DNA of 64,000 nt, taken from the NCBI GenBank assembly GCA_964245075.1, contig CAXTLC010000009.1, positions 6,440-70,439 of the forward strand, written 5' to 3'. Positions within the stretch are counted from its first letter, which is position 1. Every line of letters starts with the position of its first letter. The notes under the pieces were generated by a model. The model had not been told where the DNA came from. It saw only the letters and a list, made by a program, of their open reading frames with translations, and searched no databases. The DNA is from an uncultured Acetobacteraceae bacterium. Lineage in GTDB: Bacteria; Pseudomonadota; Alphaproteobacteria; Acetobacterales; Acetobacteraceae. Below, piece by piece: positions 3,616 to 52,861 of the stretch. The translations under genes and the position numbers were made by a program.

Positions 3616-6381
3616 ATGCTCACCATTCTCCCCCTGCCATCCACGCCCGCCGACGCTGCCGGCGTCCTGACCGACGCCTTGAGCGGCGTTGTTGCCCGGG
3701 ACGAGGTGCTGTCCGTGTTCCGCCGCCACCTCACCCGTATCCAGCACCATGTGCGCGAGGCTTTCGAGCACTACCAGGTCTCGGGACTGGAAAGCGCCCG
3801 CTCGTTGGCCGCGTTGACGGACGGCCTGATCGCCGCGCTCTACGGCTACGCCCGGGCGACTGCCGGGGCGGAGCCGTTCACGGTGGTCGCGACCGGCGGC
3901 TACGGCCGTGGCATGCTGGCGCCGTTCAGCGACATCGACCTGCTGTTCATCACGCCCGAGCCGCCGCCGCCCGAGACGCTCGCGGCAGTCGAGTTCAGCC
4001 TGTATTTCCTGTGGGACCTCGGCCTCAAGGTCGGCCACGCCACCCGCACCGTCGCCGAATGCATCGCCGAGGCGAAGGCGGACGTGACGGTGCGGACGTC
4101 CATGATCGATGCGCGCCTGCTGGTTGGCGACCGGGCGCTGTTCGAGGCGTTCACCGGGCAGTTTGCCCTTGCCTGCGCAGCCCACACCGCGGACTTCATC
4201 GCCGCCAAGCAGGCCGAGCGCGACCTGCGCCACCGCCGGTTCGGCGAGAGCCCGTTCCTGGTGGAGCCGAACATCAAGGAGGGCCGCGGCGGCCTGCGCG
4301 ACCTGCAAACCATGTACTGGATGGCGCGCTACGTGTTCGATGCCCGCGTCATGGGGGATCTGGTCGGCCCGCACAGCCCAGGCGGCGGCATCCTGGTGGA
4401 GCGGGAAGCCAAGCACGCCCGGCGGTCCTGGGACTTCCTCTGGACGGTGCGTTTCCACCTGCACTACGTGGCCGGCCGCGCCGAGGAGCGGCTGACCTTC
4501 GACATGCAGCCCGTGGTCGGCGCACGCATGGGCTACACGAAGCACGGCAGGCAGGACGGGGTGGAGCGCTTCATGCGCCACTACTTCCTGACCGCGCGGG
4601 AAGTGACCCGCATCACCGCCGTGCTGGAGCCGGCGCTCGTGCGCGCGGCGCTCGGGCCGCCGGCGCTGGCGGAGGAAACGGACCCGGCCCTGCTGGAGCA
4701 GGGCTTCGTGCTGGCGGACGGCAAGCTGCTGGCTGCGCCCGGCCGCGATTTCCAGAGCCAGCCGGTGCAGATGCTGCGGCTGTTGCAGGTCGCGCGGGAC
4801 CGGGGGTTGCAGCTTCACCCGTTGGCGATCCGCGCGCTGATCCGGCACGAGCGCGCCGCTGCCAGCCTGCGGGATGACGAGCAAGCGGCGGCACTCTTCC
4901 TGAACCTGCTGACCGGCGGGCAGGATGGCGCGCGATGGCTGCACGTGATGAACGAGGCCGGGTTCCTGGGCCGCTATATCCCGGACTGGGCGCGCATCGT
5001 CGGCCAGATGCAGTTCGACACCTACCACGTGTTCACCGTGGACGAGCACACGATCGAAGCGGTGCGGGTGCTGGACACGCTTGACCGGGGCGACTTGGCC
5101 GACGTCGCCCCGATCGCGTCCGGCTTGATGGAGGACCTGCAATCCCGCCGGGCGCTGTATGTCGCCGCGCTGATGCACGACTTGGCCAAGGGGAGGGGGG
5201 GCGACCATTCGGCGCTGGGGGCAGATCTGGCATTGACGGTCTGCCCGATGCTCGGCTTGTCCGCCGAGGAGACGGAGATGGTGTCCTGGCTGGTGCTGCA
5301 GCACCTGTTGCTGAGCCAGACCGCGTTCAAGCGGGACATCGACGACCCGAAGACCATCCTGGACCTGGTGGAGACCATCCAGTCGCCCGAGCGGCTGAAG
5401 CTGCTGCTGGTGCTCACCGTGGCTGACATGCGGGCGGTGTCTCCCCGCGTGTGGAACGCCTGGAAGGCAACGCTGCTGCGCGAACTGTATGCAAGGGTGG
5501 CGGAGGTGCTGGCGGGCGGCCTGGCCACCACGGAGCGGGATGTGCGGGTGACGCGCACCAAGCAGGCCCTGGCCGTCCGGCTGTGCGACTGGCGGGCGGA
5601 GGAGCGGGACTACTTCCTGGGCCTGGGCTATCCCGGGTACTGGCTGGGCTTTGATGTGGATACCCACCTGCGCCATGCCCGGCTGGTCCGGCAGGCGCAG
5701 GCCACCGGGGCGCCGCTGACGGTGCAGGCTGAACCTTTGCCGGCCCGCGCCGTGACGGAGATCACCGTTTACGCCGCCGACCACGCCGGGCTGTTCAGCC
5801 AGATCGCCGGCGCGCTGGCCGTGGCGGGCGCGTCGATCGTGGACGCGCGCATCCACACGCTGACCAACGGGATGGCGCTGGACACGTTCTGGGTGCAGGA
5901 CGCGGCAGGCGGGGCCTTCGATGCGCCGCACCGGCTCGCCAGGCTGTCCGTGCTGGTGGAGCAGGCGCTGTCGGGCCGATTGCAGCTCGCCGCCGAGATA
6001 CGCCGGGTCAGCGACGCGTTGCTGGGCCGCCGGATGCGCGCGATCCATGTCCCGCCCCGCGTCGTGGTGGACAACCGCGCCAGCCACACCCACACCGTGC
6101 TGGAGGTGAACGGCCGCGACCGGCCCGGGCTGTTGCACGATGTGACGGCGGCGATCAGCGAGCAGGGGTTGCAGATCGCGTCCGCTCACGTCACGACCTA
6201 CGGCGTGCGGGCGGTGGACGTGTTCTACGTCAAGGACGTGTTCGGCCTGAAGGTTGAGAACGAGCGCAAGCTGACGGCCCTGCGCCTCGCGTTGCTGACC
6301 GCGCTGGGCGGGACGGACGAGCCGGTTGCCGCCGCTGTTCCCGAGACCCGTTCGCGCCGCCGCCGCGCCAGTGCTGCCTGA
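3616..6381 (+). CDS. glnD: Bifunctional uridylyltransferase/uridylyl-removing enzyme
   Basis: GGYGRGMLAPFSDIDLLF nucleotidyltransferase motif, EPNIKEGRGGLRDL, HD domain (YHVFTVDEH...MHDLAKG), two C-terminal ACT domains; ATG abuts the mutS stop. Confidence 0.97.
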   Translation: MLTILPLPSTPADAAGVLTDALSGVVARDEVLSVFRRHLTRIQHHVREAFEHYQVSGLESARSLAALTDGLIAALYGYARATAGAEPFTVVATGGYGRGMLAPFSDIDLLFITPEPPPPETLAAVEFSLYFLWDLGLKVGHATRTVAECIAEAKADVTVRTSMIDARLLVGDRALFEAFTGQFALACAAHTADFIAAKQAERDLRHRRFGESPFLVEPNIKEGRGGLRDLQTMYWMARYVFDARVMGDLVGPHSPGGGILVEREAKHARRSWDFLWTVRFHLHYVAGRAEERLTFDMQPVVGARMGYTKHGRQDGVERFMRHYFLTAREVTRITAVLEPALVRAALGPPALAEETDPALLEQGFVLADGKLLAAPGRDFQSQPVQMLRLLQVARDRGLQLHPLAIRALIRHERAAASLRDDEQAAALFLNLLTGGQDGARWLHVMNEAGFLGRYIPDWARIVGQMQFDTYHVFTVDEHTIEAVRVLDTLDRGDLADVAPIASGLMEDLQSRRALYVAALMHDLAKGRGGDHSALGADLALTVCPMLGLSAEETEMVSWLVLQHLLLSQTAFKRDIDDPKTILDLVETIQSPERLKLLLVLTVADMRAVSPRVWNAWKATLLRELYARVAEVLAGGLATTERDVRVTRTKQALAVRLCDWRAEERDYFLGLGYPGYWLGFDVDTHLRHARLVRQAQATGAPLTVQAEPLPARAVTEITVYAADHAGLFSQIAGALAVAGASIVDARIHTLTNGMALDTFWVQDAAGGAFDAPHRLARLSVLVEQALSGRLQLAAEIRRVSDALLGRRMRAIHVPPRVVVDNRASHTHTVLEVNGRDRPGLLHDVTAAISEQGLQIASAHVTTYGVRAVDVFYVKDVFGLKVENERKLTALRLALLTALGGTDEPVAAAVPETRSRRRRASAA

Positions 6382-9241: not shown

Positions 9242-10094
9242 AAGATTGCGATAGTCAAAAATGACACAGTGACCGCGCGTAGTTGGAACTCGGCCGCATT
9301 GCTCGCGTTCGCCCGCGCTCAGCGCACCCCCGGCCAATGCCGTCCGACGGTGTCCGGCCTGCCCTGTCATGCCGCCCCGGTCCAAGCCCAGCATGCAGCA
9401 GGCCCACCGCCCAACCGACCCGGGCCGATGAAAGTAGTCCGTACGGTTCGGCACCATCACGTTGAACAGCCCCGTCGTGGCGCGTTCCTCCATGCAGCCA
9501 TGCAGGTGAAAGCGCTCGGGCGCTGGCCGCTCCCTCATAATTCGTGCACAATCATAGGGTAATGCCGGAAGGCAAACACGATCGGACCGCCTTCGGCGGA
9601 CACCGGACAGATCGTTTCATCGTCCAGCCTGCCTGCTTTCAGCTTGGGCACGTCAATGACGTTCACGATCCAAACCATCAGGCCGGATGCTGCATCCCGC
9701 AGCGATGCCGCCGTGACTATTAAGTGACGCGCCAAAACACTGCGGTCATTAATCAAAACAATGTATTAATCCGTACTGCAAGATGCTCAATGACAACCAG
9801 AGCCGTCGGTTTTCCAACATTCAGCGGCACCCATCGACTCAGCCACTATAGTTGTGGCTTCTTGGAAGTAACAGTCGGGTTTACTTCCGACTCTGATTCG
9901 AGATGGCGGTGAAACACCGTTGGCAGGCAAGCGGCTCCACCAGGGCGCGGAACAGCGGCCCTATCGGCCGTCGGTCGTTCCCACCCGGGATGGCACCCGA
10001 CGCCCGAGACGGCCGTGGAGCAGGGGCCGGTTGCGTGATGCCGGGGTGCCCGGCAAGCTTGCCGCAACACGTGCTGTAACAGTGAGGAACGGCG

Positions 10095-50005: not shown

Positions 50006-51160
50006 ATGTCCGAGAGCACGACCGCCCCGAAGCCCAAGAAATCCGTCGCCTTGTCCGGCGTCACGGCCGGCAACACCGCGCTGTGCACCGTCGGCCGCAC
50101 CGGGAACGACCTGCATTACCGCGGATACGACATCCTCGAGATCGCCGAAACCTGCGAGTTCGAGGAGATCGCCCATCTCCTGGTGCACGGCACGCTGCCC
50201 ACCGAAGCGCAGCTGCGCGCCTACAAGGCCAAGCTGCACGCGCTCCGCGGGCTGCCCACCGCCGTCCGCAACGTGCTGGAAGCGTTGCCGGCGTCCACGC
50301 ATCCGATGGACGTCATGCGCACCGGCGTGTCGGCGCTCGGCTGCATGCTGCCGGAAAGGGAGGACCACAATCACCCAGGCGCGCGCGACATCGCCGACCG
50401 GCTCATGGCATCGCTCGGCTCCATGCTGCTCTACTGGTTCCATTACGCGCAGAACGGCAAGCGCATCAGGATCGAGACCGACGACGACAGCATCGGCGGC
50501 CACTTCCTCCACCTGCTGCACGGCGCGCCGCCTTCGGCGGAATGGGTGCGGGCGATGCACACCTCGCTGAACCTGTATGCGGAACACGAGTTCAACGCGT
50601 CCACCTTCACCGCGCGGGTGGTCGCGGGCACGGGCGCGGACATGTACAGCGCCGTCACCGGCGCCATCGGCGCGCTGCGCGGCCCCAAGCACGGCGGCGC
50701 CAACGAAGTGGCGCTTGAGATCCAGCAACGCTACGCGAGCCCCGACGAGGCGGAGGCGGATATCCGCCGCCGGGTCGCCAACAAGGAGGTCGTGATCGGC
50801 TTCGGCCACCCGGTTTACACCGTGGCGGACCCGCGCAACGTCATCATCAAGGGCGTTGCCAAGCGCTTGGCCGATGCCGCCGGGGACACCACCATGTTCG
50901 CAGTGGCGGAACGGCTGGAAAGCGTGATGGCGGACGCCAAGCGCATGTTCGCCAACCTCGACTGGTTCAGCGCCGTGTCCTACCGGATGATGCGCGTGCC
51001 GACGGCGATGTTCACGCCGCTGTTCGTCATCGCGCGCACCTCCGGCTGGGCGGCGCACGTGATCGAGCAGCGCATCGACAACAAGATCATCCGTCCGGCG
51101 GCGAACTACACCGGGCCGGAAGACCGAACCTTCGTCCCGTTGGCGGAGCGGACTGCTTGA
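50006..51160 (+). CDS. prpC: 2-methylcitrate synthase
   Basis: [65 protein letters not shown]. Confidence 0.9.
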
Positions 51161-51176
51161 GACGTTTGTGCTGAAT

Positions 51177-51208
51177 AAAACAAGTATTCGCGTTGTTTTT
51201 GTTTGACA
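51177..51208 (+). promoter_or_regulatory. AT-rich inverted repeat plus consensus -35
   Basis: AAAACAA-N9-TTGTTTT (51177-51199) followed by TTGACA (51203-51208). Confidence 0.5.
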
Positions 51209-51423
51209 TGCAAACGGCGCACGCGAGATAGCGGGAGAGCGTGCGCAGCCTCCGCCATCGGGATGGAGGCGGCAGGTTGGTGAGGGAGAACGGTCGATGC
51301 GCCCAATCTGCCGCGGTCGTCTCCTCACCGCTGCGGCCCAGGCGTGTTCCGCTTCGAAGGCGCCTGCCTGCCTCACGTGTCAGCCGCCGGCCCGCGCGAC
51401 CCGGCGGTTCCCACCGGCGCGGT

Positions 51424-51448
51424 GGAACCGGCTGCACATGCGGCCGTT
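51424..51448 (+). promoter_or_regulatory. EcfG/sigmaT general-stress promoter
   Basis: Exact GGAAC-N16-CGTT, 40 nt before ATG 51489 (AAGGA RBS). Confidence 0.7.
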
Positions 51449-51488
51449 CGCTTTCACGAGACTTGCAACGGCCCTAAGGAAACAAGCA

Positions 51489-52118
51489 ATGGACAATGAA
51501 GACACGAGGCAGCCCGCTCCCCGCGCCCAGGCGATGGCGGTGAGGGCTCCAACGAAGACTGCGCCCAAGGTGGCGGCCAAGCCTGCTGCCGCGAAGAAGC
51601 CAGCGGCGGCGAAGGCTGCTCCGAAGCCGGCGAAGGCTGCGGCGAAAGCGGCCCCGGCTAAGGCTGTCCCGGTTAAGGCTGCCCCGGCCAAGGCTGTCCC
51701 GGCAAAGGCCGCCAAGCCTGTCCCGGCGAAGGCCGCCAAGCCTGGCTCGAAGCCGGCCAGCAAGTCCGAGGCGGCCAAGACGATGAGGACCGCCAAGGCC
51801 CCGGCCGCGCGTTCCGCCGCCGCGAAGGCGCTCAGCTCCTCCAAGGCGGGCGCTGCGGCCGCGCCGGCGAGGAAGGCTGCGCCGAAGCCGGCAGCCTCCG
51901 CCAAGGCGGCCCCGAAAGCCGCCAAGACGAAGGTCGCCGCGAAGCCAGCCGCAAACAAGACGGAAGCCTCCAAGACGATGCGGACGGCCAAGTCGCCGGC
52001 CGCGCGTTCGGCCGCGGCGAAGGAGCTGAGTTCGGCTGCGCCCAAGGCCCGCCGCCGCAAGGGCGCCGACGCGACGCCCGAACCGACCACCGCCCAGACC
52101 AGCGACTCGATCAACTAG
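51489..52118 (+). CDS. Histone H1-like Lys/Ala/Pro-rich protein
   Basis: PAKA/KPAA/PAK repeats; a 21-aa module KTMRTAKxPAARSAAAKxLSS occurs twice. Confidence 0.75.
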   Translation: MDNEDTRQPAPRAQAMAVRAPTKTAPKVAAKPAAAKKPAAAKAAPKPAKAAAKAAPAKAVPVKAAPAKAVPAKAAKPVPAKAAKPGSKPASKSEAAKTMRTAKAPAARSAAAKALSSSKAGAAAAPARKAAPKPAASAKAAPKAAKTKVAAKPAANKTEASKTMRTAKSPAARSAAAKELSSAAPKARRRKGADATPEPTTAQTSDSIN

Positions 52119-52160
52119 AGCGTCATCCGACCGTATCCAGACGGCGCTCGCCCTTAAACG

Positions 52161-52194
52161 TCCCCGCCCGGCCTATGGAAGGCCCGGGTGGGGA
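52161..52194. terminator. Hairpin between convergent genes
   Basis: TCCCCGCCCGGCCT-ATGGA-AGGCCCGGGTGGGGA. Confidence 0.5.
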
Positions 52195-52234
52195 TTGGAC
52201 GGAAAGCAGGCTCCTTCCAGGATGCCTCGACAGC

Positions 52235-52861
52235 TCAGCCGAACGTGGCGAGCAGGTCCTCGACCTGGCCCGGCGTCAGAACCCTAGGCGACAAGCCGCG
52301 CAGCAGCAGCGCCAGCCTCGCCGCCTCCTCCAACTCCTCAGCCGCATACACGGCGTCGGTCAGCGTCGGGCCGGACACCACCGGCCCATGATTGGCGAGC
52401 AGCACGGCCCGTGAGCCGGCCGCCGCTTCGGCGATCGCGGGCTCCATCGCCGGGTCACCGGGACGGTAATACGGCACCAGCGGCAGCACGGGGCCGATGC
52501 GCATGACGAAGTAGGGCGTCAGCGCCGGCATCGCCTCGCCGCCGGGCAGGCAGGCAAGGGCGGTGGCCATGGTGGAATGCAGGTGCACCACCGCGCCCGC
52601 CCCTGGCCGAGCTTGATAGAAGGCGCGATGCATGAAGACTTCCTTCGACGGCCTGTCGCCGCCGACGTGGGCGAACGCTTCGTCCAGCCGTGACAGCCGC
52701 GCCGGGTCGAGCCGCCCGAGCGAGGAGTTGGTGGGCGTGATCAGGAAGCCGCCTTCCGCCAACCGCGCGCTGACATTGCCGGCGCTGCCGACGCTGAACC
52801 CGCGCGCGAACAGGCTGGCGGCCAGCTCCACCAGGAGCCGGCGGGTCTCGTCCTCGGTCAT
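52235..52861 (-). CDS. otnC: Class II aldolase, 3-oxo-tetronate 4-phosphate decarboxylase-like
   Basis: GSAGNVSARL, ITPTNSSLGRL, PSKEVFMH, VVHLHST, LLANHGPVV; follows otnK. Confidence 0.85.
   Translation of the reverse strand: MTEDETRRLLVELAASLFARGFSVGSAGNVSARLAEGGFLITPTNSSLGRLDPARLSRLDEAFAHVGGDRPSKEVFMHRAFYQARPGAGAVVHLHSTMATALACLPGGEAMPALTPYFVMRIGPVLPLVPYYRPGDPAMEPAIAEAAAGSRAVLLANHGPVVSGPTLTDAVYAAEELEEAARLALLLRGLSPRVLTPGQVEDLLATFG

Follow-up and report, generated by a model that had tools for sequence, protein, structure and literature searches.

An unannotated family of Lys/Ala/Pro-rich, predicted disordered proteins in the Acetobacteraceae, with a lineage-specific candidate promoter of the general stress response

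The window analysed here, a stretch of 64,000 nucleotides (nt) of DNA from an uncultured Acetobacteraceae bacterium, contains on its plus strand an open reading frame (ORF) of 209 codons (51489-52118; its product is referred to as P0001) that starts with an ATG at 51489 and closes with a TAG at 52116-52118. The gene is preceded by a ribosome-binding site, AAGGA at 51476-51480, which forms the downstream end of a conserved block of the 5' untranslated region (AACGGCC...AAGGA, 51467-51480). Farther upstream on the same strand, and inside the intergenic region 51161-51488, lie an exact match to the consensus of EcfG-type (ECF15) general stress promoters, GGAACCGGCTGCACATGCGGCCGTT (51424-51448), and a second, distal promoter candidate of the sigma-70-like type (51203-51231). 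Orthologues from 19 of the 24 genomes of the same genus keep the start codon and the ribosome-binding site as well as the C-terminus (...TSDSIN) and an N-terminal block. Across all 16 genus orthologues that were aligned, with or without the EcfG motif, ACGGCC and AAGGA vary little or not at all. Judged by this conservation, the ORF is a genuine, monocistronic gene.

Two-thirds of the protein is made of three amino acids: alanine (36.8%), lysine (16.7%) and proline (12.4%) together account for 66% of P0001, which has a mass of ~20 kDa, an isoelectric point of 11.4 and a net charge of +37 distributed evenly over 180 residues. Glycine makes up 1.4%, and the grand average of hydropathy (GRAVY) is -0.55. 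The tetrapeptides PAKA and KPAA recur five and four times, respectively, and the first half of the basic region (51579-51752) is a Lys/Ala/Pro tract composed of tandem units of 15, 24 and 30 nt; the arrays are short (3.8 copies of the 15-nt and 2.4 copies of the 24-nt unit). Embedded in this low-complexity body are two copies of a conserved module. Copy 1 spans residues 90-119 (51756-51845), with the core KTMRTAKAPAARSAAAKALSS at 51777-51839 (residues 97-117); copy 2 spans residues 155-184 (51951-52040), with the core KTMRTAKSPAARSAAAKELSS at 51972-52034 (residues 162-182). A first-pass annotation of the window had already noted the exact GGAAC-N16-CGTT motif 40 nt before a 209-codon, Lys/Ala/Pro-rich ORF with PAKA repeats, and had described the duplicated module as a 63-bp element at the two core positions; these observations stand, with the amendment that the direct repeat is longer, extending over 83 nt (51756-51838 and 51951-52033) at 81% identity. 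The two copies differ by nine synonymous and four non-synonymous codons out of 25, and this predominance of synonymous differences argues for an old duplication held by selection at the level of the peptide rather than for a recent repeat of DNA.

Structure prediction sets the modules apart from the remainder of the protein. An AlphaFold2 model built on the genus alignment has a mean predicted local distance difference test score (pLDDT) of 58.7, with values of ~50 outside the modules, which amounts to predicted disorder and takes in the first 90 residues; helices are predicted in the two modules only (pLDDT ~80-84). Module 1 is modelled as two helices, residues 92-101 and 105-117, flanking S/A-P (pLDDT ~81-84), and module 2 likewise as helices 157-166 and 170-182. 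Two further segments are conserved: an N-terminal motif, RAQAMAVRA (residues 12-20; 51522-51548), which is kept both within the genus and in further genera of the Acetobacteraceae, and a C-terminal tail, PKxRRRK...PEPTTxxTSDSIN (52041-52115), which is conserved within the genus.

These elements define a family: its members begin with M-x-(D/E)(D/E)...RAQAMAVRA, continue with a variable, basic, low-complexity body, and carry one or two modules of the form KTM[RK]TAKSPAxRSAAAKxL, predicted to be a helix-SP-helix unit of ~26 residues whose M, P, R, S and L do not vary across the family. How widely is the family distributed? A profile of 30 module positions was run on 401 genomes sampled across the class and on 401 sampled across the Acetobacteraceae (143 genera). 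The latter set yielded matches in 36 genomes belonging to 11 of the 143 genera; the class-wide set gave, besides the genome under study, only two marginal matches of ~22 bits. By the measure of this profile, the family appears to be confined to some Acetobacteraceae and to occur essentially nowhere else. Members were recovered by searching DNA directly, in metagenome-assembled genomes (MAGs) of uncultured Acetobacteraceae and in one Lichenicoccus MAG; many of these MAGs are named in the style of a global lichen metagenome survey (PMC11542873), so that much of the family appears to reside in MAGs of lichen origin.

Collections of proteins, by contrast with DNA, yield next to nothing. Scans against Pfam and NCBIfam with P0001, with six diverse relatives and with the isolated module returned no family; a profile search of the PDB with P0001 found no match; a word-indexed homologue search was likewise negative, whether the query was the full-length sequence or residues 152-209; and six family members and an antisense ORF (to be considered below), looked up as exact sequences, were all missing from the protein collection. 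An exhaustive HMMER search of 1.84 billion representative sequences retrieved only two C-terminal fragments of 41-43 residues, and both begin at the internal methionine of module 2, which suggests that genes of such low complexity are systematically lost in gene calling or filtering. The near-absence of the family from protein collections is likely due to composition filters and to missed or mis-started gene calls. The 21-residue core that the first-pass annotation had proposed as a conserved module and had recommended for a database search is accordingly a strong family signature that can be followed through 11 genera by profile, yet corresponds to no established Pfam or NCBIfam family. An Rfam scan of 50900-52400 gave two matches, both at chance level.

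Two side observations concern the membership of the family. In four members from other Acetobacteraceae genera (L046, L048, L070 and L077, one of them labelled Lichenicoccus) the body is rich in Arg, Thr and Ser instead of Lys, Ala and Pro; the module lies near the N-terminus, a diverged second module reads AAVxMRRSPSAxxRKKAAExLRE, and the C-terminal tail is acidic. That the module is unchanged despite this switch of the surrounding body suggests that it has a specific role. A 348-residue member (L038) is found on a contig of a MAG labelled Janthinobacterium lividum, a betaproteobacterium; an error of binning or labelling is probably responsible, rather than transfer of the gene.

The EcfG-type promoter candidate consists of a -35 element, GGAAC (51424-51428), a spacer of 16 nt, and a -10 element, CGTT (51445-51448), placed 40 nt before the ATG and so within the ~100 nt ahead of a regulated start codon where such promoters are expected. 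The consensus, GGAAC and (C)GTT spaced by 16-17 nt, is the one used in work on the EcfG regulon of Sphingomonas melonis Fr1 (PMC6599016), whose promoters share both elements, the spacing and the distance to the start codon with the one described here. Of 20 genus orthologues, whose proteins are as little as 56% identical among those that have the motif, 13 show both blocks exactly and with the 16-nt spacing; in these 13 the two motif blocks do not change, and the sequence ahead of them and the central positions of the spacer do. One further orthologue (L012) has AGAAC in place of GGAAC. Placement of the motif in the genome was assessed relative to Shine-Dalgarno sequences followed by ORFs, a crude mask of coding sequence having proved too leaky for the purpose: 9 of the 41 matches in the genome (22%) sit 10-70 nt before a Shine-Dalgarno sequence and ORF, compared with 3.7% for 359 permuted control motifs, of which only six reach nine placed matches, all of them with two to four times more matches in total.

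The genome also encodes the regulatory apparatus that such a promoter would call for. A single contig (C109, 547-4631) carries phyR (251 codons), divergent from a group made up of two ecfG paralogues (187 and 199 codons), nepR (76 codons) and a histidine kinase gene (577 codons). Pfam recognises PhyR_sigma2 and Response_reg domains in PhyR and Sigma70_r2/r4_2 in both ECF factors; the match of the 76-residue protein to the Pfam NepR model is below threshold, at 21.6 bits. (A second NepR-like ORF, of 57 codons, stands alone on contig C28.) Other genes of the genome that have the same motif 16-50 nt before them encode several small secreted proteins, a glycine-zipper lipoprotein, a PRC-barrel protein, a Pyrid_ox_like protein of the general stress protein 26 type and an SDR protein. 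Three of these classes (small secreted, PRC-barrel and general stress protein 26) also belong to the EcfG regulon that was defined by experiment in S. melonis, at similar distances (PMC6599016). The resemblance to that regulon thus extends from the promoter to PhyR, NepR, the paired EcfG factors and two of the sister targets. The P0001 promoter differs in being lineage-specific, in lying 3' of a second conserved promoter-like element and in having a palindromic spacer; its dependence on EcfG is predicted, whereas that of the S. melonis regulon is experimentally defined. The target itself is also different: a literature search covering EcfG, PhyR, SigT and RpoE2 regulons found no histone-like (Lys/Ala/Pro-rich, H1-like) protein in any of those described.

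The second promoter-like element lies directly after the stop codon of the citrate synthase gene, is preceded by a T-rich stretch, and consists of TTGACA (51203-51208), 17 nt, and AGATAG (51226-51231). It is recognised by its conservation: GTTTTTGTTTGACA-N17-(A/T/G)GATAGCG occurs in 18 of 18 genus orthologues, among them three in which a gene other than that for citrate synthase lies upstream, and several other genera have a similar TTGACA-N17-TGAC/TGAG at ~125-135 nt before the ATG. Within the genus its distance to the ATG is ~286-290 nt in the main clade and ~138 nt in a subclade. The scan for consensus promoters did not call it because its -10 element is atypical. From this pattern of conservation the distal element may be taken as the basal promoter of the gene; alternatively, it may drive transcription of a leader RNA or small RNA in its own right. 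It is kept where the EcfG motif is absent, and so control by EcfG is probably a genus-specific overlay on a basal promoter.

Joined together, these elements suggest the following course of events. Basal transcription would proceed from the distal sigma-70-like promoter that the whole family has in common. Under stress, PhyR would be phosphorylated and would sequester NepR, freeing EcfG; RNA polymerase bearing EcfG would then initiate a few nt after 51448, producing an mRNA with a leader of ~35 nt, and expression would be raised. The Lys/Ala/Pro tracts of the product would bind a polyanion multivalently and electrostatically, with chromosomal DNA as the first candidate and RNA or polyphosphate as alternatives, while the invariant helical modules would supply a specific contact or a means of self-association. 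The anatomy of gene and family, the conserved motifs, the stress-response system encoded by the genome and the predicted disorder are results of the analysis; the activity of the promoter, its response to stress and the nature of the ligand are the parts of this scheme that we infer. To the reading as a whole, that P0001 is a cationic, disordered, polyanion-binding protein of an unannotated Acetobacteraceae family, expressed from two promoters, we assign a probability of about 0.55.

Several observations weigh against it. The bare motif is not over-represented: the window contains two matches where 0.69 are expected, 17 of 100 shuffled sequences give at least two, and the 41 matches genome-wide compare with 97 for the reversed control. 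The raw genome-wide count, being below its controls, was discarded as evidence, and the significance of the motif rests on placement and conservation because the bare count is no more than chance would provide. A five-member subclade of the genus has no EcfG motif and a leader shorter by ~150 nt; one orthologue (G024/L068) has kept the spacer and CGTT and lost GGAAC; and the motif is absent from every other genus in which the gene occurs. Because subclade and other genera are without it, stress control is not a property of the family, and the general stress promoter claimed in the first-pass annotation is sustained (by consensus, spacing, distance, the PhyR-NepR-EcfG system and 13 invariant orthologues) only as a feature of one lineage. 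The spacer, moreover, contains an imperfect palindrome, CGGCTGC-ACAT-GCGGCCG (51429-51446), whose arms (GGCTGC/GCGGCC) are nearly invariant in the 13 motif-bearing orthologues and whose 4-nt loop appears as ten different sequences, which suggests a constraint other than recognition by a σ factor. On the side of the protein, P0001 has no homology to any characterised nucleic-acid-binding protein in the Pfam, NCBIfam and PDB searches, and its four KPAA and five PAKA repeats are to be set against 22-25 or more in the Pseudomonas proteins AlgP and PhaF (PMC9239181, PMC12818456).

What, then, might such a protein bind? AlgP and PhaF are the most instructive comparison. Like P0001 they are Lys/Ala/Pro-rich, strongly cationic and predicted to be disordered in this part, have short tandem repeats and are linked to stress or starvation. 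They belong to another class of bacteria, and homology to P0001 is not detectable. Their long tandem KPAA arrays (9 to ~30 units) are absent from P0001, and so is a structured N-terminal domain (helical in AlgP, a phasin in PhaF): Pfam and NCBIfam find none, and this part of P0001 is the predicted disordered one. Conversely, P0001 has small conserved helix-SP-helix modules set within its basic tracts, which AlgP and PhaF do not. Chlamydial Hc1 and Hc2 and the tails of linker histones share its composition, its charge and presumably its binding to polyanions, but P0001 is without a globular winged-helix domain and without SPKK motifs, and the Pfam models HC2, Hc1 and Linker_histone do not match (E up to 1 for P0001 and up to 5 for six relatives). 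The actinobacterial HU-type proteins HupS and HupB/MDP1 and Streptomyces DdbA likewise have basic, low-complexity, Lys/Ala-rich C-terminal tails, reported to compact DNA under developmental or stress regulation (PMC11229371, PMC3643593); there the tails are attached to a folded DNA-binding or DksA-like domain, of which P0001 has no counterpart. By its sequence, the gene looks like a regulon member with an EcfG promoter and its product like an H1-type tail protein; the lack of a profile match, of a long KPAA array and of a head domain places P0001 outside the families of AlgP/PhaF, Hc1/Hc2 and the linker histones. The histone-H1/AlgP/Hc2-like designation of the first-pass annotation holds for composition; it does not extend to a match in Pfam, NCBIfam or the PDB, or to a long regular KPAA array. 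The condensation of the nucleoid and the protection from desiccation that were proposed there would follow by analogy.

DNA, with the nucleoid as the site of action, is a tentative first choice of ligand, it being the default ligand of tails of this kind. Somewhat less probable, and the likeliest of the competing explanations, is a role for P0001 as an RNA- or ribosome-binding regulator or as an organiser of polyphosphate granules rather than as a nucleoid protein. The KPAA-type region of PhaF binds specific mRNAs and activates their translation (PMC12818456), and AlgP, whose own KPAA-type region binds DNA, localises to polyphosphate granules and spaces them in starvation (PMC9239181); an invariant module, too, hints at a specific partner more than at bulk coating of DNA. 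Against this must be set the lack of any sequence relationship of P0001 to either protein, the missing structured head domain, and a locus whose neighbouring genes, for citrate synthase and an aldolase-like protein, do not point to the metabolism of RNA or polyphosphate.

A different objection addresses the promoter. In place of a working EcfG promoter, the segment 51424-51455 might form a hairpin or operator (acting as attenuator, as terminator of a small leader RNA, or as repressor site) in a long leader whose transcription starts at the distal TTGACA promoter, and expression would then be independent of EcfG. The conserved arms and freely varying loop of the spacer palindrome are what such an element would display; its stem grows to ten pairs when GGAAC and GTTC are included; a scan flags the element as terminator-like, with TTCGCTTTC following it; the orthologue that has lost GGAAC retains the arms as well as CGTT; and the distal element is found in every genus member examined and in several other genera. 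On the other hand, none of the ten stem pairs shows a compensatory change among the orthologues, and pairs are broken in three orthologues that still have GGAAC and CGTT. The fold is no better than that of shuffled sequences (z-score -1.0), and the U-tract is poor, and missing in L017. Thirteen lineages, moreover, would have to show by coincidence both blocks exactly, at the canonical spacing and distance. A hairpin in RNA is for these reasons not adopted, and the whole objection is judged unlikely and kept as a minority view; for the palindrome itself, an operator overlapping the promoter and an RNA hairpin are equally possible. A similar arrangement, GGAAA-GGCTGCATGGCCGCAG-CGTA, is found in the region upstream of phyR (C109, ~3800-3860), and an operator or hairpin common to the two sites is possible. 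The leader also contains a perfect inverted repeat of 12 bp, GCCTCCGCCATC-GG-GATGGAGGCGGC (51248-51273); considered as a single structured RNA, the whole 259-nt leader folds with a z-score of -0.83 and was rejected.

Might P0001 bind nothing at all? Proteins of the late embryogenesis abundant (LEA) and hydrophilin types, which are distinguished by more than 6% glycine and high hydrophilicity or by LEA repeat profiles, and by balanced charge, are the type to consider here. A ligand-free molecular shield of this kind, serving desiccation and rehydration in lichen thalli, would fit the predicted disorder, the stress-type promoter, and the occurrence of relatives in Lichenicoccus and in MAGs named like those of the lichen survey (PMC11542873). 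The particulars speak against it: with glycine at 1.4%, a GRAVY of -0.55, a one-sided charge of +37 and no LEA-type Pfam match, P0001 is unlike LEA proteins and hydrophilins, and the family-wide distal promoter looks constitutive. A pure protectant is accordingly a poor prospect.

Least credible by far is the suggestion that the plus-strand ORF is an artefact of composition and that the real gene, if there is one, is a 244-codon antisense ORF (51380-52114): both strands are open at the locus, the shared wobble position prevents GC content at third codon positions from deciding between them, and neither protein is found by exact look-up in the public collection, but stop codons break the antisense frames in between 9 and 34 of the 38 homologues, antisense ORFs range in length from 93 to 628 codons, the plus frame is open in 38 of 38 (by construction, since homologues were chosen in that frame), and it is the plus frame alone that has the conserved modules and termini along with the conserved ATG and ribosome-binding site. 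The antisense gene is accordingly rejected.

Downstream, P0001 faces a convergent gene for an aldolase-like protein, which ends at 52235; between the two lies a GC-rich, terminator-like hairpin without a T-run (52160-52195, assigned to neither strand; -31 kcal/mol, z-score -2.65). The order of citrate synthase, P0001 gene and convergent class II aldolase-like gene (50006-52861) is the same across several genera (loci L002-L083), and the citrate synthases of these loci are 77-89% identical across genera. The other exact GGAAC-N16-CGTT of the window, at 9285-9309, is intergenic and adjoins an opposite-strand gene for a Gly/Thr-rich repeat protein of 433 residues; no convincing ORF is found downstream of it.

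A part in organising bacterial DNA, RNA and polyphosphate is coming to be recognised for cationic, disordered, Lys/Ala/Pro-rich proteins, and few families of them have been defined; none was found by the literature search in a general stress regulon of the Alphaproteobacteria. The family described here is unannotated and sharply defined, with stress control specific to a lineage, and it is invisible to current annotation, having no Pfam or NCBIfam model and being nearly absent from a library of 1.84 billion proteins. The functional claims made for it are inferential, and its immediate value is that of a well-defined candidate rather than of a discovery. Its two sharply conserved motifs nevertheless offer clear experimental handles, and sister lineages that have the same gene, some of them with an EcfG promoter and some lacking one, constitute a small natural experiment in the evolution of regulation. 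If the lichen origin of the MAGs is true, the hosts are among the most frequent of lichen-associated bacteria, living where tolerance of drying matters. One can then speculate, with a good deal of doubt, that the RAQAMAVRA head and the module together mark a new, lineage-specific chromatin or dormancy protein of lichen-associated Acetobacteraceae, that the module is a hitherto undescribed unit for binding nucleic acid or a partner, and that in this genus the protein came under the control of the general stress response, where it may compact or shield the nucleoid through cycles of drying and rewetting.

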